This document shows positions 55,312-63,553 of a DNA stretch of 64,000 nt, one piece after another. This stretch comes from an uncultured Actinomycetota bacterium. Its GTDB lineage: Bacteria > Actinomycetota > Actinomycetes > JAHEKZ01. Numbering within the stretch: the stretch's first letter is position 1; every line of letters starts with the position of its first letter. The notes below the pieces were generated by a model that was not told where the DNA came from, did not search any database, and saw only the letters and a list, made by a program, of their open reading frames with translations. Where the stretch lies: positions 704,001 through 768,000 of the forward strand of contig CAVURN010000001.1 of NCBI GenBank assembly GCA_963743915.1. The letters run 5' to 3'. The translations under genes were made by a program, and so were the position numbers.

Positions 55312-56809
55312 ATGACCAAGCACGTGACCCACTGGATCGACGGCAAGCTCCACGGCGGCGTCGCCGAGCGCCAGGGTGACATCTTCGACCCGGCCACCGG
55401 ACAGGTCAGCGGTCACGTCGACTTCGCCGACGTGGCCATCGTGGACGAGGCCGTGGCCGCGGCGAAGGCCGGCGTTCGCGCGAGTGGCGCCACGCGTCGC
55501 TCACCAAGCGGAGCCAGGTCCTGTTCAAGTTCCGTGAGCTGCTCGACGCCCGCAAGGGAGAGATCGCCGAGCTCATCACCGCCGAGCACGGCAAGGTGCT
55601 CTCGGACGCGCTGGGTGAGGTCACGCGCGGCCAGGAGGTCGTCGAGTTCGCCTGTGGGATCCCGCACCTGCTCAAGGGCGGCTTCTCCGAGAGCGTCTCG
55701 ACCCGGGTCGACGTCTACTCGATCCGTCAGCCGCTCGGCGTCGTCGGCATCATCTCGCCGTTCAACTTCCCGGCCATGGTGCCCGATGTGGTTCTTCCCC
55801 ATCGCCATCGCCGCGGGCAACGCGGTCATCGTCAAGCCGAGCGAGAAGGACCCGTCGGCCGCCAACTTCATCGCCGAGCTCTGGGCCGAGGCGGGGCTGC
55901 CCGCGGGTGTCTTCAACGTGGTGCACGGTGACAAGGTCGCCGTCGACCGGCTGCTCGAGCACCCCGACGTCAAGGCCGTCTCGTTCGTCGGCTCCACGCC
56001 CATCGCCCGGTACGTCTACGAGACCGGGACCAAGAACGGCAAGCGGGTGCAGGCCCTCGGCGGGGCCAAGAACCACATGCTCGTGCTGCCGGACGCCGAT
56101 CTCGACCTGGCGGCCGACCAGGCCATCAACGCAGGGTTCGGGTCGGCCGGCGAGCGCTGCATGGCCATCTCCGCGCTGATCGCGGTCGACAGCATCGCCG
56201 ACGACCTGATCGCGAAGATCACCGAGCGCATGGGGACCCTGCGCACCGGTGACGGTCGCCGCGGCTGCGACATGGGGCCGTTGGTCACCGCGCAGCACCG
56301 CGACAAGGTCGCCGGCTATGTCGCCGCCGGGGTCGAGGAGGGCGCATCGCTGGTGGTCGACGGCCGCGAGGTGCAGCCGGACGGTGAGGCCGGATGGCTT
56401 CTGGCTCGGCCCCACGCTGTTCGACAACGTCACGCCCGACATGAGCATCTACACCGACGAGATCTTCGGACCGGTGCTGTCGGTGGTGCGCGTGCACTCC
56501 TACGACGAGGGCCTCAAGCTCATCAACGACCACCCGTACGGCAACGGGACCGCGATCTTCACCAACGACGGTGGCGCCGCGCGCCGCTTCCAGAACGAGG
56601 TCGAGGTCGGCATGGTCGGCATCAACGTGCCGATCCCGGTGCCGATGGCCTACTACTCGTTCGGGGGCTGGAAGAACTCCCTCTTCGGCGACACCCACGC
56701 GCACGGCATGGAGGGCGTGCACTTCTACACCCGCGGCAAGGTCGTCACCAGCCGCTGGCTCGACCCGAGCCACGGCGGCATCAACCTCGGCTTCCCGCAG
56801 AACGCCTGA
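55312..56809 (+). CDS. mmsA: CoA-acylating methylmalonate/malonate-semialdehyde dehydrogenase; several indels
   Basis: [24 protein letters not shown]|[44 protein letters not shown]. Confidence 0.9.
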
Positions 56810-56899
56810 GCCGGCGTCCCGCAGAACGCCGAGCTGCTCACCTCGCTCACCCGCTTGGGTGATCGACCCGCGAGCGCTCAAGGTCGATGCTTACTGACT

Positions 56900-57424
56900 G
56901 TGAGCACCGGGGGAGCACGCGACGTCATTCGGGTCATCACCGACTTCCGGAGAGCGTTGGGCGAGGTGGCGCCGCAGGACTGTCCTGAGGCTGCCGCCGA
57001 GTTCCTCTGTGAGCTCTTCGAGGGCTCGGCGACGGCGCTCAACCTGATGGACTACGGCCAGACCCGGTTCCAGACCGTGACGAACGTGGGTCGGCTGACG
57101 CGGGACGAACGCCGCGTGCCGCTGGGTGAGTACTACGGGTTCGCCGACTTCCCCATGACGACGCAGGCGCTGGCGAAGGGTGCGGCCTACCGGTCCTCCC
57201 TGCTCGACCCCAACTGTCCTCCGGAGTACCGCACGCTGTTGAGCGCGCAGCGTCGCACCGATTGCATGGGGGCCCCGATCCGCCTCTCCGGCCGTCCGGT
57301 GGGGGAGTTCTGGGTCTCCCGTGACTCCGGTCGGCCCTTCACCGAAGTCGACGAGGACTTGGCGGTCGCCTGCGGCGCCACGCTCGCCCGCTACTTCCGG
57401 CCGAGCTGGGCTCACGCCGGCTGA
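56900..57424 (+). CDS. Stand-alone GAF-domain protein
   Basis: YGFADFPMTTQAL, CMGAPIRLSGRPVGEFWVSR...PFTEVDEDLA GAF pattern; start uncertain. Confidence 0.75.
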   Translation: MSTGGARDVIRVITDFRRALGEVAPQDCPEAAAEFLCELFEGSATALNLMDYGQTRFQTVTNVGRLTRDERRVPLGEYYGFADFPMTTQALAKGAAYRSSLLDPNCPPEYRTLLSAQRRTDCMGAPIRLSGRPVGEFWVSRDSGRPFTEVDEDLAVACGATLARYFRPSWAHAG

Positions 57425-57451
57425 GTCGTTCCCGGTCGGTAGGGTTCGCGC

Positions 57452-58480
57452 ATGACGCGCTACGGCCCCATGTTCGGCCCTGACATCACCTTCCTCGGCG
57501 TGCCCGCCTGTGACCTCGACGAGCCGGACACGTACGCGGACGCCGACGTGGTGATCGTGGGTGCGCCGTTCGACGGTGGCACCAGCCACCGCCCTGGCAC
57601 GCGGTTCGGTCCCATGGCCATGCGCTCCACCGACTACCTACCGCACGACGGCGTCCGCCCGCACATGGCGATGCGGGTCGAGGCCTTGACCGAGGACCTC
57701 CGCGTGGTCGACGCGGGTGACCTCGAGGTCTACTCGGGCGACGTCGTGCGCAGCTGTCAGATCATCGAGGACGCGGTGGCCACCATCGCTGAGTCCGGCA
57801 AGATCCCGCTCGTGCTCGGCGGCGACCACACCGTCACCTGGCCGGACGTCACCGGGGTCGCCCGCGCCGCCGGCTACGGCCGGGTGTCGGTGATCCACTT
57901 CGACGCCCATGCCGACACCGGCGACATCGAGTTCGGCTCGCTCTACGGACACGGCCAGCCCATGCGCAGGCTCATCGAGTCGGGTGCTGCGCGCGGCGAC
58001 CGCTTCCTGCAGCTGGGGCTGCGCGGCTACTGGCCCGGCCCGGACATCCTCGACTGGATGGCCGACCAGAACATGCGTTCGTTCCACATGAGCGAGATCG
58101 TCGCCAAAGGCCTCGACGCGGTGCTGGACGAGGCCTTCACCATCGCCACCGACGACTGCGACGGGATCTTCCTGTCGGTCGACATCGACGTCTGCGACCC
58201 CGGGCACGCCCCCGGTACCGGCACCCCGGAACCGGGGGGACTGACCGCCCGCCAGCTGCTCGACGCCGTCTCGCGCATCTGCTACGAGCTGCCCGTGCTC
58301 GGCGTCGACGTGGTGGAGGTCTCCCCGCCCTACGACCACGCCGAGATCACCGCCTTCCTGGGCAACCGGGTGGTGCTCGAGGCCCTCTCCGGCATCGCAC
58401 GACGCCGCAAGGACGGCGGCCAGGTGCGCTGGGACCGGGCCACCCCGCTGCTCGACGGGCGTGGCTCCGGGTCCGTCTGA
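57452..58480 (+). CDS. speB: Agmatinase / ureohydrolase
   Basis: PGTRFGP, LGGDHT, HFDAHAD, SVDIDVCDP..APGTGTPEPGG, DVVEVSPPYD. Confidence 0.9.
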   Translation: MTRYGPMFGPDITFLGVPACDLDEPDTYADADVVIVGAPFDGGTSHRPGTRFGPMAMRSTDYLPHDGVRPHMAMRVEALTEDLRVVDAGDLEVYSGDVVRSCQIIEDAVATIAESGKIPLVLGGDHTVTWPDVTGVARAAGYGRVSVIHFDAHADTGDIEFGSLYGHGQPMRRLIESGAARGDRFLQLGLRGYWPGPDILDWMADQNMRSFHMSEIVAKGLDAVLDEAFTIATDDCDGIFLSVDIDVCDPGHAPGTGTPEPGGLTARQLLDAVSRICYELPVLGVDVVEVSPPYDHAEITAFLGNRVVLEALSGIARRRKDGGQVRWDRATPLLDGRGSGSV

Positions 58481-58643
58481 GACCCTCTCTGACCTGGGCA
58501 ATATCACTCTCCGTAACATCGCCTGACACTGTGTGTTCACCCGTATGGCGGTCTAACGATGTCGCTCTCCGGCACGAAGTAATCACTGTGGGGGTGACGT
58601 TGTGCACTTCCCGCTCGTCGCGACTGAAATGGGAAGGGGAGCG

Positions 58644-58751
58644 ATGAAGAACATCAAGTCAGAGATGGTGGTCCGAGGCAGCGCTGCTGCGGTGGGCCTC
58701 ATGGTGCTCGTGTCCGTTGTCGGGGCCGGCACCAAGTGGATGAACAACTAA
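58644..58751 (+). CDS. Small hydrophobic peptide 1 (35 aa), putative signal-peptide precursor
   Basis: MKNIKSEMVVRGSAAAVGLMVLVSVVGAGTKWMNN*; SD GGAAGGGGAG; paralogous to the next ORF; not in the ORF track. Confidence 0.8.
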   Translation: MKNIKSEMVVRGSAAAVGLMVLVSVVGAGTKWMNN

Positions 58752-58764
58752 AGGAGGCGATCAC

Positions 58765-58871
58765 ATGATGGACGAGCTCAAGGCTCGCGTGATCGTCTCC
58801 GTGCTGGGCAGCGCCGCCACGGTGGTGACCCTGGCATCTGTGGTCGGAGCCGGAAAGAAGTGGGCCGCTAA
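58765..58871 (+). CDS. Small hydrophobic peptide 2 (about 35 aa), putative signal-peptide precursor
   Basis: MMDELKARVIVSVLGSAATVVTLASVVGAGKKW; perfect SD AAGGAGG; as assembled it reads on to 59070, but one extra G in tggg gives ...KKWGR* ending at TAA 58869-58871. Confidence 0.75.
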
Positions 58872-60986
58872 CGACACCAGAAGGGGGAGCCGTCGATCGT
58901 TCGGCGGCTCCCCTTCTTCGTCGTCCCGAGTGGGCGCTTTCGGCCTACATCTGGGCCGTCATCGTCGACGGGGCTGCTGCTCCTGGTCGTGTCACTCTTC
59001 CTGGCACCGCTGTCCGAGGCCTTCGGGGTCGACGCATGGGGCGGATACCCCTCCCAGGGACTCGTGCTGACCCTGCTCGTGGGCACGGTGATCATCGGGG
59101 AGCTGCGCCCCGTCCCGGTGCCGCGCGGCGGCGACACCGCCGACATGATCACCATCTCCACCACGTTCACCCTCACGCTGGCCATCGTGGGTCCGGTGAG
59201 CGTCGCCCTGCTCGCCCAGGCGGTCGCTGTGCTCATCGACGACGCGATCTCCCGTCGGTCCCCGGTCAAGATCGCCTTCAACGTCGCGCAGTACACGATC
59301 ACGGTGATGGCCGCCCATACCGCGTACTCCCTCGTCGTCGGCGAGCCGGTCTTCGGGCCCTACAACTACTTCGACCACAACGCGCTGGAGCTCGCAGGTG
59401 CCTGGTCGCCGCCTTCGTCTTCCTGCTGGTGAACCAGGCACTGGTCTCCACCGTGGTCTCGCTCGCCTCCGAGCAGCGCGTCCGTACCGTCTTCGTGCAG
59501 GACCTGCGCTTCCAGGCGATGACCGCCGGCGTCCTCTCGATCCTCGCCCCCGTGGCAGCGCTCGTGGTGCAGGCGCAGCCGCTGATGCTCCCGATGCTGA
59601 TCGCGCCGGTCGCTGCGGTCTACAACAGCGCGCAGGCTCGCCGTCGCGATGGGTCGTCAGGCGAGCCACGACGCGCTGACCGGCCTGGCCAACCGCGAGC
59701 TGTTCCGCGAGCGGGCGGTCAAGGCACTCGAGGACTCGCAGCGGACCGACCAGCCCCTGGCGATCATGATGATCGACCTCGACCACTTCAAGGAGATCAA
59801 CGACACCCTCGGCCACCAGGTGGGCGACGAGCTGATCTGCGAGGTCGCTCACCGGCTGGAGGAGGCACGGCCAGCGGGTGCCACGGTGGCCCGCCTCGGT
59901 GGCGACGAGTTCGCGGTGCTCCTGCCGGACATCCCCGACCTCTCGGTCGCTGAGGACGTGGCCACGTACCTGCTGTCGGTCCTCGGCAAGTCGTTCTCGG
60001 TGGGCGGTGTCCGGCTGGTGGTGCAGGCGAGCCTCGGCATCGCCCTTGCTCCTGACCATGGCGACGACGTCCACACGCTCATGCGCCGCTCCGACATCGC
60101 GCTCTACGAGGCGAAACGCGAGCGCGCACGCTTCTGTGCCTACACCTCCGAGGACGAGGACACCCACACCCCGCAACGTCTCACGATCCTCACCGACCTG
60201 CGGTCGGCGGTGGAGGAGGACGAGCTCTTCCTCGTCTACCAGCCGAAGATCGATGTCGCGAGCGGCGAGGTCGCCGGTGTCGAGGCGCTGGTGCGCTGGA
60301 ACCACCCCACCCGCGGCATCCAGTACCCCGACACGTTCATCCCGCTGGCCGAGAACACCGGTCTCATCACACCGATCACGTGGTTCGTGGTGGAGCGCGC
60401 CCTCCGTCAGGTGCGGACATGGCAGGAGAACGGGATCGACCTGTCGGTCGCGGTCAACCTCTCGGTGCGCCACCTCACCGACATGAGTCTGCCGGACCGG
60501 ATCGCGGTCGCCCTCGAGCGCTGGGGGGTGGCACCGTCCAAGCTGGTGGTCGAGGTCACCGAGAACAGCATCATGACGGACCCGAAGCGTGCGACGGTCG
60601 TGCTGCAGCAGCTGCGCAGGATCGGCGTCGAGATCGCGATCGACGACTACGGCACCGGCCATGCGTCCCTGAACTACCTCAAGCGCTTCGACATCGACGA
60701 GCTCAAGGTGGACAAGTCGTTCATCATGAACCTGGACCCCGACTCGAGCGACGCGATCATCGTCGCCTCCACCATCGAGCTCGGCCACAACCTCGGGCTG
60801 CGGATCGTCGCCGAAGGGGTCGAGGACGCCGCGACGCTCGAGTGGCTCGGCGGCCTCGGGTGCGACATCGCGCAGGGCTTCCACATCGGGCGACCGATGA
60901 CTCCGGAGGCCATCGTCGAGGTCGTGCGTGAGCGCGGCGGGGACCACCGGTCCGCTGGTCCGCTGCGTCTGGTCGGGAGCAGCTGA
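58860..60986 (+). CDS. Polytopic membrane GGDEF-EAL (diguanylate cyclase/phosphodiesterase) protein; indels near 58862, 58967, 59400, 59640
   Basis: N-terminal multi-TM region split over frames; HDALTGLANR, DLDHFKEINDTLGH..GD, RLGGDEF, YQPK, EALVRW, DDYGTG, LKVDKSF, AEGVE, QGF; start inferred. Confidence 0.9.
58879..58917 (+). terminator. Strong hairpin immediately after the peptide genes
   Basis: AGAAGGGGGAGCCGTCGA-tcgt-TCGGCGGCTCCCCTTCT. Confidence 0.75.
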
Positions 60987-61634
60987 TGCTCGTCCTCGTC
61001 CTGTGCGTCTTGTCGCTCGCGTCGCCCGTGCTGTTCGGCGGGCAGATGTCGCGGCTCGCCTTCGTCCGGTTCCGTGGCTGGTGGATCCTGGTCGCGGCGC
61101 TGCTCGCGCAGATCGTCATCATCGAGGTGGTTCCCGACGCGAACCGCACGCTGCTGGAGAGCGTGCACATGGCGACGTACGTCGCGGCGGGCGCCTTCGT
61201 CGCCATGAACTGGCGGGTGCCGGGACTCCTGGTCATCGCGCTGGGGGGCGCCTCGAACGGCATCACGATCGCCCTCAACGGCGGGCAGCTGCCGGCGTCG
61301 CGACCCGCTCTGGAGATGGCGGGCATCGAGGTGGCCAACGGTGACTTCATCAACTCCGGTGTGCTGAAGGACCCCGTGCTGCCGCTTGCTGGGTGACTAC
61401 TTCGTGTGGCCTGAACCCTTTCCGTTCGCCAACGTGTTCAGCGTCGGGGATGTGCTGATCGTCCTCGGTACGCTCTACGGCGCTCACAAGATCACCGGGT
61501 CGCGTCTGGTCAAGCGCCCGTGGCGGCTGCCCGACGACGTCGAGGCGATGCTGCGGGGAGGCCGCGGGGACGCCGAGGTGCCGGCTGGGGCGGCAGAGGG
61601 GCAGTCCGGTCGTCTGCGGATGCGGTGCCGGTAG
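60986..61634 (+). CDS. DUF5317-like membrane protein (signal peptidase II-like motifs); indel near 61385
   Basis: LFGGQMSRLA, LGGASNGITIALNGGQLP, LGDYF, FANVFSVGDVLIVLG; translationally coupled (TGATG) to the GGDEF-EAL gene. Confidence 0.78.
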
Positions 61635-61809
61635 CCGCGGCTCCGGAGTCCCTCGCCGAGCGTCTCGCCCGACGTCGGGGCCCTAACCAGCGAAGAGCAC
61701 GACACAGGTTAGGATCGGTGGCGCCGCGAGCCCGATGCCCGGAGGATGCCACCCCGAAGGGCTCGGGTCCATGGACACCGCGGCGTCCGCCGACGGAAGG
61801 ACTTCTCTC

Positions 61810-63032
61810 ATGCGCATCCTGCTGGTCGGAGCAGGGGGTGTCGGCTCGGCGGTCGTGCCGATCGCTGCTCGCCGTGACTTCTTCGAGACCGTGGTGGTGG
61901 CCGACTACGACCGTGACCGCGCCGAACGTGCCGTCGCGCAGGTGGACGACCCGCGCTTCGTCGCTGCCGAGGTGGACGCGTCGAACGCCGAGGCAGTGGT
62001 CGGTCTGGTCCGTGAACATGCGATCACCCACGTCCTCAACGCCGTGGATCCACGGTTCGTGCTCCCCATCTTCAACGGGGCGTTGGCGGCTGGTGCTGAC
62101 TACCTGGACATGGCGATGTCGCTGTCGTTCCCCCATCAGGACGAGCCGTACGCCAAGACCGGCGTCAAGCTCGGCGACGAGCAGTTCGCGGTGGCCGGTG
62201 AGTGGGAGAAGGCCGGTCGGCTGGCACTGGTGGGCGTAGGCGTCGAGCCCGGCCTCTCCGACGTGTTCGCCCGCTACGCAGCCGACGAGCTCTTCAGCGA
62301 GATCGACGAGGCCGGTGTCAGGGACGGATCGAATCTCGAGGTCGACGGGTACACGTTCGCTCCCTCGTTCTCGATCTGGACCACCATCGAGGAGTGCCTG
62401 AACCCGCCGGTGATCTGGGAGAAGGACAGAGGGCTGGTTCACGACGCCTCCCTTCTCCGAGCCGGAGGTGTTCGACTTCCCGGAGGGCATCGGACCGGTC
62501 GAGTGCGTGAACGTCGAGCACGAGGAGGTCCTGCTCATCCCGCGGTGGGTCGACTGCCGGCGCGCGACCTTCAAGTACGGCCTGGGTGAGGAGTTCATCG
62601 ACGTCCTGAAGGTGATCCACAAGCTCGGCATGGACCGGACGCAGAAGGTCGCGGTGGGGGACGTCGGAGGTCAGCCCCCGCGACGTCATCGCCGCGCTGC
62701 TTCCCGACCCCGCCACGCTCGGCGACCGCATGACGGGCAAGACGTGCGCCGGCACGTGGGTGACCGGTACCGGCAAGGACGGCAAGCCCACGTCAGGTGT
62801 ACCTGTACCACGTGGTCGACAACGAGTGGACGATGCGCGAGTACGGCTCGCAGGCCGTCGTGTGGCAGACGGCGATCAACCCCGTCGTCGCCCTCGAGCT
62901 GCTGGCCGACGGGTCATGGTCGGGAACCGGCGTCCTGGGACCGGAGGCCTTTCCGCCGAAGCCTTTCCTGGACAAGCTCGTCGCCTACGGGTCACCGTGG
63001 GGCATGCGCGAGGAGACGCCACGCCAGCATGA
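61810..63032 (+). CDS. Saccharopine dehydrogenase family protein (carboxy(nor)spermidine synthase-like); several indels
   Basis: MRILLVGAGGVG Rossmann motif, YLDMAMS, GVEPGLSDVFARYA, EECLNPP, HEEVLLIPR, QAVVWQTA, GVLGPEAF. Confidence 0.85.
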
Positions 63033-63553
63033 GACGCCACCTGGTCGTGGCGGCCGCTGGGGTCTTCGGGCTGTCGGTGGTTGGCTGCATGGATCAAGGT
63101 CCGATGGATCAGCTGCGCGAAACGATGAGCACCCTGTCCGTTCCCGAGGCCCTGGAACCCTGGCGGGTCCAGCCCTGGAAGGGGGTCGACGGATGGGAGT
63201 CGCTCGAGATGCGGGACGGACGTGACGCGCTCATCTGGGAGGGTCCCCGAGGCATCGACAACGAAGACGCCTGGATAGCAAGTGGCTGGCGGCTCGAGCC
63301 CGTTGTGTCCGAGGGTGATCCCGTCGACCAGGCCTGTGCGGTGCTCGTCGAGCTCGTCGAGGCGAATGTCGCGGCTCGCGACACGATGACCGGCGAACCC
63401 GTCAAGTGTCAGGACGAGAAGTGGCCCATCAAGCGGTCGTACTCGCTGGAATGGTCGACCACGCAGGACGGACGATCGCTCGAAGCGGACGCCACACTGA
63501 GGGAGACGGGGCGCGCTGACGTCTTCACCTTCACCGTGACCGTCGGCGAGTGA
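63029..63553 (+). CDS. Putative lipoprotein, function unknown
   Basis: MRRHLVVAAAGVFGLSVVGC signal peptide and lipobox; ATGA overlap with the upstream gene. Confidence 0.65.
   Translation: MRRHLVVAAAGVFGLSVVGCMDQGPMDQLRETMSTLSVPEALEPWRVQPWKGVDGWESLEMRDGRDALIWEGPRGIDNEDAWIASGWRLEPVVSEGDPVDQACAVLVELVEANVAARDTMTGEPVKCQDEKWPIKRSYSLEWSTTQDGRSLEADATLRETGRADVFTFTVTVGE

Follow-up and report, generated by a model that had tools for sequence, protein, structure and literature searches.

What does the DUF5317 protein that is encoded beside a cyclic di-GMP (c-di-GMP) enzyme and two very short peptide genes do, and is it a protease that acts on those peptides? We analyzed a stretch of 64,000 nucleotides (hereafter the window) from the genome of an uncultured Actinomycetota bacterium (assembly GCA_963743915.1, contig CAVURN010000001.1, positions 704,001 to 768,000), in which a DUF5317 gene follows a gene for a membrane GGDEF-EAL enzyme and a pair of genes for single-helix micro-proteins. 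An earlier note on this DNA had proposed that the DUF5317 protein is a homolog of signal peptidase II (LspA, peptidase family A8), repurposed for peptides that carry no lipid. The reading that we favor, with a probability of about 0.4, is that DUF5317 is a peptide-handling membrane protein with a proteolytic function, an aspartyl peptidase on a scaffold unlike that of LspA.

In the deposited sequence the gene is split into two overlapping open reading frames (ORFs), 60986-61396 and 61386-61634, which lie in different frames and are the two halves of a single gene. The first half matched Pfam DUF5317 (PF17248) with E = 8.2e-13 (49 bits, profile positions 3-93 of 151) and the second with E = 2.3e-6 (28.1 bits, profile positions 118-147), the curated cut-off being 25 bits. 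All three motifs on which the earlier note had relied were found where it placed them. LGGASNG (61241-61261) is in the frame of the first ORF, which carries G87, N91 (codon 61256-61258) and an N98-G-G-x-L-P motif. LGDYF (61389-61403, Asp codon 61395-61397) and FSVGDVLIVLG (beginning at 61437, Asp codon 61449-61451) are both in the frame of the second. Reading through an extra base at 61380-61383 gives a protein of 215 residues (P0001) with the junction DPVLPLLGDYF, and this junction is identical in P0002, an intact homolog of 239 residues that is 96% identical and scores 84.1 bits against PF17248.

A full HMMER scan gave 1,830 cluster representatives of the DUF5317 family at E ≤ 0.001, and beyond Actinomycetota a control scan also gave signals in Thermus thermophilus and Thermotoga maritima. 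Conservation was assessed in an alignment (A1, n = 116) of P0002 with 115 representatives of 175-300 residues, taken from 150 listed, longer and shorter ones being left out. N75, G87, N91, N98, G100, P103, G136, D137 and G154 were invariant (116/116), and D155 (115/116), S152 (114/116), L135 (111/116) and F151 (103/116) were nearly so. The two aspartates are separated by 18 residues in 113/116 sequences, and the distance from N91 to D137 is 46 residues in 89/116 and 45-50 in the remainder. The order N...D...FxxxD, which had been read from one sequence, is therefore right for the whole family, and both Asp residues, whose conservation had been proposed as a check, are retained. Q42, H61, Y65, N75 and N98 are further invariant polar residues of DUF5317.

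The AlphaFold2 (AF2) model of the full protein, with a predicted local distance difference test score (pLDDT) of 87.6, has five helices at residues 2-16, 32-48, 54-74, 81-97 and 153-170. The last two are connected by a loop of 55 residues, made up in part of three short strands and one short helix; the only sheet of the model thus lies between transmembrane helices (TM) 4 and 5, and TM2 and TM3 are joined by just 5 residues. Net charges are positive for loops 17-31 (+2.5) and 75-80 (+1.4) and for the tail (+2.5), and negative for loops 49-53 (-0.3) and 98-152 (-1.6). From this charge bias and the AF2 model, the N-terminus of this inner-membrane protein is predicted to lie outside and the C-terminus inside, with both aspartates at the outer face. 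D155 is predicted to open the last transmembrane helix, as its counterpart does in LspA.

LspA (MEROPS A8, Pfam PF01252) of Staphylococcus aureus folds into four helices and a beta-cradle, with a catalytic dyad, Asp118/Asp136, placed towards the outer surface, and passages of the structural study name 14 conserved residues: D21, K25, N52, G54, G102, N106, D109, R110, V116, D118, F132, N133, A135 and D136 (PMC6952399). The last four of these correspond in DUF5317 to F151, S152, G154 and D155, whilst G102, N106, V116 and D118 correspond to G87, N91, L135 and D137. The G-to-N spacing of 4 and the D-to-D spacing of 18 are equal in the two proteins, and we infer that D137 and D155 are equivalent to the LspA dyad. 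Both are small polytopic membrane proteins with two outer-face aspartates, the first following a hydrophobic-x pair in a strand and the second, within F-[NS]-x-[AG]-D, marking where the last helix begins, and with G-x3-N in the helix before. This local likeness is genuine and has enough specificity to be worth following as a lead.

The differences are as marked. DUF5317 has five predicted helices rather than four, lacks a beta-cradle behind its first two helices, and has the 55-residue loop between its last two; from Asn to the first Asp it is about 34 residues longer than S. aureus LspA, in which N106 to D118 is 12. The D..K, NxGAAF and D-R residues of LspA are invariant in 25 actinobacterial sequences (alignment A2), whereas the first helices of DUF5317 had no invariant Asp/Lys pair and no NxGAAF in A1, and where LspA has D-R the DUF5317 positions 94/95 hold A/T/V and I. 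The aspartate of the GGAxGNxxDR motif, to which the earlier note had likened this region, is accordingly absent from DUF5317; its loss is a smaller objection than it looks, since the dyad of the LspA structure consists of the VxD and FNxAD aspartates.

Searches for an overall relationship gave little. Pfam A8 (PF01252, cut-off 25 bits) matched neither half of DUF5317 at E ≤ 0.1, and Peptidase_A8 appeared among the weak Pfam matches (E ≤ 10) of 2/116 family members, with a best E of 0.029. When A1 was compared with A2 in hhalign, the best segment paired VFSVGDVLIV with VFNVADSAIV, at a probability of 2.1% and a score of 23.3. The DUF5317 profile had 0 matches at E ≤ 10 among all Protein Data Bank (PDB) chain sequences, a scan of NCBIfam returned nothing for DUF5317 or the micro-proteins, and in the ESM Atlas the nearest clusters were all DUF5317; the C-terminal part alone, with DUF5317 clusters skipped, gave no usable match there.

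Solved LspA structures include 6RYP/6RYO from S. aureus and 5DIR from Pseudomonas aeruginosa. Foldseek against the PDB returned 12 rows for the full model and 15 for the C-terminal model, all with E ≥ 3.8 and none of them LspA. With VIA-align the full model had no LspA among the 50 matches listed (Z 5.8-7.3), nearly all of which span the helical hairpin 28-77. Modelled on its own (pLDDT 90), the C-terminal module did match LspA 6ryp_A, at rank 21 of 48,161 chains, with Z 3.6, a root-mean-square deviation (rmsd) of 5.9 Å, 71 aligned residues and 18% identity; the aligned span, residues 81-161, is the H3-H4 region. A second structural comparison of this model, against only 15 PDB chains, gave a best Z of 2.6. 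The structural hint of LspA is confined to this weak listing, in which the correct region is aligned.

Membership of peptidase A8, as the earlier note had it, is not supported: there was no A8 match at threshold, the hhalign probability was 2.1%, 6/14 residues are missing and there are five helices. Common descent of DUF5317 and A8 is unproven, there being no significant profile or fold similarity between them. Nor is DUF5317 the lipoprotein signal peptidase of the cell. A canonical lspA is found elsewhere in the genome (G000:C2), with 123.3 bits against PF01252 and all 14 residues, adjoining genes of the pseudouridine-synthase (rluD) and dksA types, and LspA is present in 40/41 genomes, a tally that includes six unpublished genomes. 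When a dyad pattern derived from LspA, followed by 8 hydrophobic or small residues, was run over the whole genome in six frames, it gave 2 matches, the true LspA and DUF5317; the pattern had been relaxed after DUF5317 had been seen, and the excess over chance is modest.

GxGD-type proteases (presenilin, prepilin peptidase) were considered as another model and dismissed on motif grounds alone, as 114/116 sequences have Ser where S-V-G-D begins.

The candidate substrates are peptides of 28-41 residues with a single helix and a C-terminal end of the form G-A-[GP]-x-K-[WF]. In an alignment of 63 sequences (A5) A28 and K31 were invariant and there was no conserved cysteine. Their N-tails have a mean net charge of +1.7, and the N-terminus is predicted to be inside, which would put the G-A-[GP]-x-K-[WF] motif on the outer side of the membrane, at the height of the acidic DUF5317 loop. 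The earlier note had proposed VVGAG as a lipobox-like cleavage site; what the family conserves is the G-A-[GP]-x-K-[WF] motif at the very end of the peptides. They share with LspA substrates the shape of a signal peptide (basic N-end, hydrophobic core, small residues), and differ from them in having neither cysteine nor lipobox and in ending 3-6 residues past the small-residue motif. Of the two copies in the window, micro-protein 1 (ORF listed from 58602) matched the peptide profile at 2.5e-11 within its own genome and has orthologs at the same place in 7/7 same-family loci examined. Micro-protein 2 has lost its stop through a one-base gap near 58866/58867, as shown by DNA alignment with three relatives (G003, G010 and G006), and therefore appears as an ORF of 101 aa. 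A complex prediction of DUF5317 residues 1-180 with micro-protein 1 gave scores of 0.02 and 0.12, the mark being 0.32; run without controls, it carries no weight either way.

Copy number varies among relatives. In the genome of the window, micro-protein copies are limited to the two described, whilst same-genus genomes have extra pairs and tandem arrays, a single locus having as many as six copies (L148, G009:C70, 3600-4860; L149, G004:C8, 3360-4040; L147, L150 and L151). These extra arrays are far from any DUF5317 or GGDEF-EAL gene and adjoin DUF2252, M20 peptidase, DUF2157, TetR and GAF genes. At L057 (G016:C3, 2400-3210) four micro-protein genes stand in a row 5' of the GGDEF-EAL gene, one of them a divergent copy that ends LGAGVKWG.

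To assess how firmly the peptides are tied to DUF5317, we used 80 public actinobacterial loci gathered with the DUF5317 profile. A peptide gene was present within 4 kb in 51/80: on the same strand in 42, on the opposite strand in 5 more, and in 4 more through the variant motifs GANNKW, SADQKW and EAGRKW. The opposite-strand search had been intended as a control, and all five of its matches are members of the peptide family, divergent from DUF5317 in L083, L129, L131 and L143 and from the enzyme gene in L089. In loci without GGDEF-EAL, peptide genes were found directly 5' of DUF5317 (L093, L096, L122), divergent from it (L083, L098, L129, L131, L134, L143) or 3' of it (L090), which argues that the peptide follows DUF5317 and not the enzyme alone; L069 probably has a broken enzyme gene. 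Among 41 relatives, the peptide profile matched in 22/29 DUF5317-positive and 0/12 DUF5317-negative genomes, the latter including the unpublished G025 and G033, although these genomes are kin and not independent. The tie between the neighboring peptides and DUF5317 that the earlier note had assumed is thus upheld as a genetic link. The same-genus genomes, with many peptide genes to one DUF5317, suggest a ratio like that of substrate to enzyme.

The second partner is the c-di-GMP enzyme. Actinomycetes and Acidimicrobiia share one fixed gene order, peptide(s), enzyme, DUF5317, and in the window the ATG of DUF5317 and the stop of GGDEF-EAL have one base in common (TGATG). A same-strand ORF of at least 150 aa ends near the DUF5317 start, on its 5' side, in 54/80 loci, and the gap between enzyme and DUF5317 is -10 to +19 nt in 49/80. 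Among the 54 upstream proteins, EAL was found in 50, GGDEF in 48 and MASE9 in 20 at E ≤ 0.01 (best 2.9e-6). In the window, the last 445 aa of the enzyme matched EAL (6.6e-74) and GGDEF (1.6e-46) in Pfam. Passages of a preprint by Galperin and Chou describe MASE9 as a membrane sensor domain of eight segments on HD-GYP and GGDEF-EAL proteins, which is thought to bind a ligand, as yet unidentified, inside the membrane, and record the combination of MASE9 with GGDEF-EAL (bioRxiv 10.1101/2021.11.05.467447). The partner enzyme resembles MASE9 enzymes such as Thermotoga maritima TM1467 and Streptomyces venezuelae HdgA in having a multi-helix N-terminal domain with a weak MASE9 match, followed by GGDEF-EAL. 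It differs in that this match is below the Pfam cut-off (18 bits against 24.3 for the closest intact ortholog), and partner peptides find no mention in those passages. An hhalign comparison of DUF5317 with the MASE9-like domain scored 13.9 and indicated no relation. At gathering thresholds Rfam had 0 matches in the whole window, so there is no c-di-GMP riboswitch in it. The features of the locus are collected in Table 1.

Table 1. Features of the DUF5317 locus, in window coordinates.
Feature	Coordinates	Strand	Remarks
Micro-protein 1	58644..58751	+	35 aa, one helix, ends VVGAGTKWMNN; start matches relatives
Micro-protein 2	58768..58871	+	Paralog of micro-protein 1, ends VVGAGKKWA; profile match 5.7e-12
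Membrane GGDEF-EAL c-di-GMP enzyme	58880..60986	+	MASE9-like N-terminal multi-helix domain; Pfam EAL and GGDEF
DUF5317, N-terminal part	60986..61396	+	Residues 1-133; TM1-TM4 and first half of outer loop
Frameshift splitting DUF5317	61380..61388	+	One extra base; read-through; junction matches P0002
DUF5317, C-terminal part	61386..61634	+	L-G-D137, beta-hairpin, F-S-V-G-D155, TM5, basic cytoplasmic tail

In other lineages DUF5317 is joined to an exporter. Fusion to a transporter of the major facilitator superfamily (MFS) was found in 10/15 long representatives and in 6/12 long ORFs. In Acidimicrobiia and Solirubrobacteraceae, DUF5317 forms the N-terminal domain of MFS_1/MFS_3 (EntS-like) transporters, examples being loci L116, L131, L134, L142, L129 and L087 and proteins P0134, P0190, P0197, P0223 and others. 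In L129, L131 and L134 a divergent micro-protein gene stands just 5' of the fusion gene.

A peptide-handling role is favored because the micro-proteins have the shape of signal peptides, their motif is predicted to be on the same side as the aspartates, many peptide genes go with one DUF5317, and the family is fused to exporters; proteolysis is the most specific mechanism compatible with this, given the aspartate motif. On this reading, the aspartate pair would bind the outward-facing G-A-[GP]-x-K-[WF] of a micro-protein and DUF5317 would cut the peptide, as a membrane aspartyl peptidase on a non-LspA scaffold, to give either a trimmed peptide or a freed tail of 3-6 residues. The MASE9-like GGDEF-EAL enzyme, which is translationally coupled to DUF5317, may then read the product; in other lineages the fused MFS exporter may do so instead. 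We consider a more detailed version rather unlikely: that DUF5317 is a new membrane aspartyl peptidase family which cuts between G-A-[GP] and x-K-[WF] to leave a Lys-Trp peptide outside, that MASE9 reads this cue or the remaining helix and so sets c-di-GMP, and that the MFS fusions export the product.

Several results weigh against a proteolytic DUF5317. There is no counterpart for 6/14 LspA residues (D21, K25, N52, G54, D109, R110). The 6ryp_A match is tied with some 40 unrelated rows and has a poor rmsd, and a Z below 8 may mean merely a common arrangement. The hhalign score of 23.3 compares with 18.7-20.9 for reversed-profile controls and was reached or exceeded by 1/30 column shuffles, whilst the global score of the dyad sub-region, 9.9, was reached by 3/60 shuffles and left the first aspartates unpaired. 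In shuffled frames the dyad pattern had 0.225 matches per genome, with at least one in 7/40 shuffles. The invariant Q42, H61, Y65, N75 and N98 would equally suit a ligand or ion site. On the side of the peptides, 29/80 loci had none under the patterns used, a cut after G-A-[GP] would free just 3-6 residues, and the Pro at the third motif position (GAP) in many of them would be an odd P1 residue.

The strongest competitor, which we hold to be nearly as likely, is that DUF5317 joins the micro-proteins and the MASE9-like domain in a stable membrane complex without cleavage, in which DUF5317 acts as co-sensor or regulator of the c-di-GMP enzyme, the G-A-G motif serves helix packing and the Lys-Trp anchor makes a salt bridge to the aspartates. 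The overlapping or abutting genes, with their gap of -10 to +19 nt in 49/80 loci, the fixed gene order and the predominance of EAL (50/54) and GGDEF (48/54) among the upstream ORFs speak for such a complex, as does the absence of significant similarity of DUF5317 to any peptidase. The polar helix residues Q42, H61, Y65, N75 and N91 would fit a ligand site, and MASE9 is itself thought to bind its ligand in the membrane, as stated in passages of the preprint (bioRxiv 10.1101/2021.11.05.467447). However, distant peptide arrays with up to six copies are a poor fit with subunits of fixed stoichiometry, DUF5317 is found without the enzyme, fused to MFS, with a peptide gene still adjoining, and invariant aspartates in an LspA-like setting would have to be a coincidence.

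Coincidence is taken further if the motif arose by chance and DUF5317 has an unrelated role, for instance that of a membrane anchor or of a module that binds or transports ions or small molecules, with the peptides belonging to the c-di-GMP enzyme alone. The dyad pattern is expected about 0.2 times per genome, no known fold was matched, and MFS fusion could reflect a transport-related role; we nevertheless regard this as improbable, as peptide genes stand beside DUF5317 in loci without GGDEF-EAL, peptides are confined to DUF5317-positive genomes among the 41 relatives, and the matched positions are the invariant ones of the family. Least probable of all is true, divergent membership of A8, by which DUF5317 would be an LspA paralog whose beta-cradle was lost and to which an N-terminal helix and a long insertion in a loop were added. 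The order G-x3-N, [VL]-x-D, F-[NS]-x-[AG]-D, the spacing of 18, the shared orientation of the final helix pair, the weak A8 matches in 2/116 members and the listing of 6ryp_A with the correct region aligned all speak for such descent. It is made very unlikely by a profile-profile score that does not rise above its controls, the missing LspA regions I and II (D..K, NxGAAF) and D-R pair, the five-helix model, in which TM2 and TM3 are just 5 residues apart at the beta-cradle position, the 34-residue insertion between Asn and first Asp, and candidate substrates without a lipobox cysteine.

Parts of the proposed arrangement are familiar from other systems. MgrB and SafA are small membrane proteins that regulate a sensor enzyme, PhoQ. 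The micro-proteins resemble them as single-helix proteins of about 30-50 residues that are encoded near, or act on, a membrane signaling enzyme, and differ in having a third partner (DUF5317), a strict C-terminal motif and multi-copy arrays; the two are unrelated in sequence. Cleavage of leader peptides by peptidase-exporter fusions is known from the C39 peptidase domain on ABC exporters (PCAT), and enterococcal pheromones are cut from lipoprotein signal peptides. DUF5317-MFS is like PCAT in placing a candidate processing domain N-terminal to an exporter, with small precursor genes alongside and a Gly-rich motif before the putative cut, and like the pheromones in that very short peptides would come from signal-peptide-like sequences. 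The transporter class and the protease class are different, however, and here the part of the 'leader' would fall to the hydrophobic helix, leaving a putative product of only 3-6 residues.

The break in DUF5317 has counterparts in the adjoining genes. By tblastn with same-genus proteins, we found frame changes in the aldehyde dehydrogenase gene (2), in GGDEF-EAL (3, near 58990, 59402 and 59634 against the intact ortholog of G006) and in DUF5317 (at least 1), and the non-conserved tail of DUF5317 has at least one further break near 61555-61613. DUF5317 is uninterrupted in 19/19 same-family genomes. Contigs of related strains from 4/4 public short-read runs showed indels at 59401 and 59632; at 61386 the contig of run X1 is one base shorter, and one gap each is present in the X2 and X4 contigs that span the site. 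Runs X2 and X3 seem to be a single data set, and the contigs of all runs are those of relatives (no more than 20% of sampled words in common), which reflect coding in the lineage and not the reads of this strain. As the same type of break affects the neighbors and is absent from the related short-read contigs, the DUF5317 frameshift is very probably an assembly error. DUF5317 is functional in the lineage, and here is disrupted by assembly-type indels alone.

Frame breaks number about 8 in 6 kb of the window (55480-61640), counting 2 in the aldehyde dehydrogenase gene, 3 in GGDEF-EAL, 1 in micro-protein 2 and at least 1 in DUF5317. The assembly, of 5 contigs and 90% complete, looks unpolished, so that gene calls and completeness estimates for the genome are too low. 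Upstream of the peptide genes (55480-58480), as in L053-L059, are genes for an aldehyde dehydrogenase, a small GAF protein and an arginase-family (agmatinase-like) enzyme, a block seen in the same-family genomes examined. The gene 3' of DUF5317 (61735-63553), which starts MRILLVGAGGVGSAVV in relatives, a start of the NAD-binding type, is kept at that place in the genus, and looks frame-broken here (ORFs 61735-62589 and 62468-63553).

A full-text literature search for 'DUF5317' and 'PF17248' returned no paper with either term, and neither occurs in the passages found of the MASE9 preprint (bioRxiv 10.1101/2021.11.05.467447). For annotation, the locus shows that assembly frameshifts can conceal intact genes, and a motif-level likeness to LspA should not become an A8 annotation. 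The trio offers a simple test system of three small genes and two point mutants. If the aspartate pair is catalytic, DUF5317 would be a new class of membrane protease with a defined, genetically linked substrate family, and if the more detailed route from peptidase to c-di-GMP were also true, it would provide the first MASE9 ligand and a new peptide-to-c-di-GMP pathway in Actinomycetota. If the aspartates are not catalytic, the trio of micro-protein, DUF5317 and MASE9-like GGDEF-EAL enzyme would still give a sensor domain that lacks a known signal its first candidate partners.

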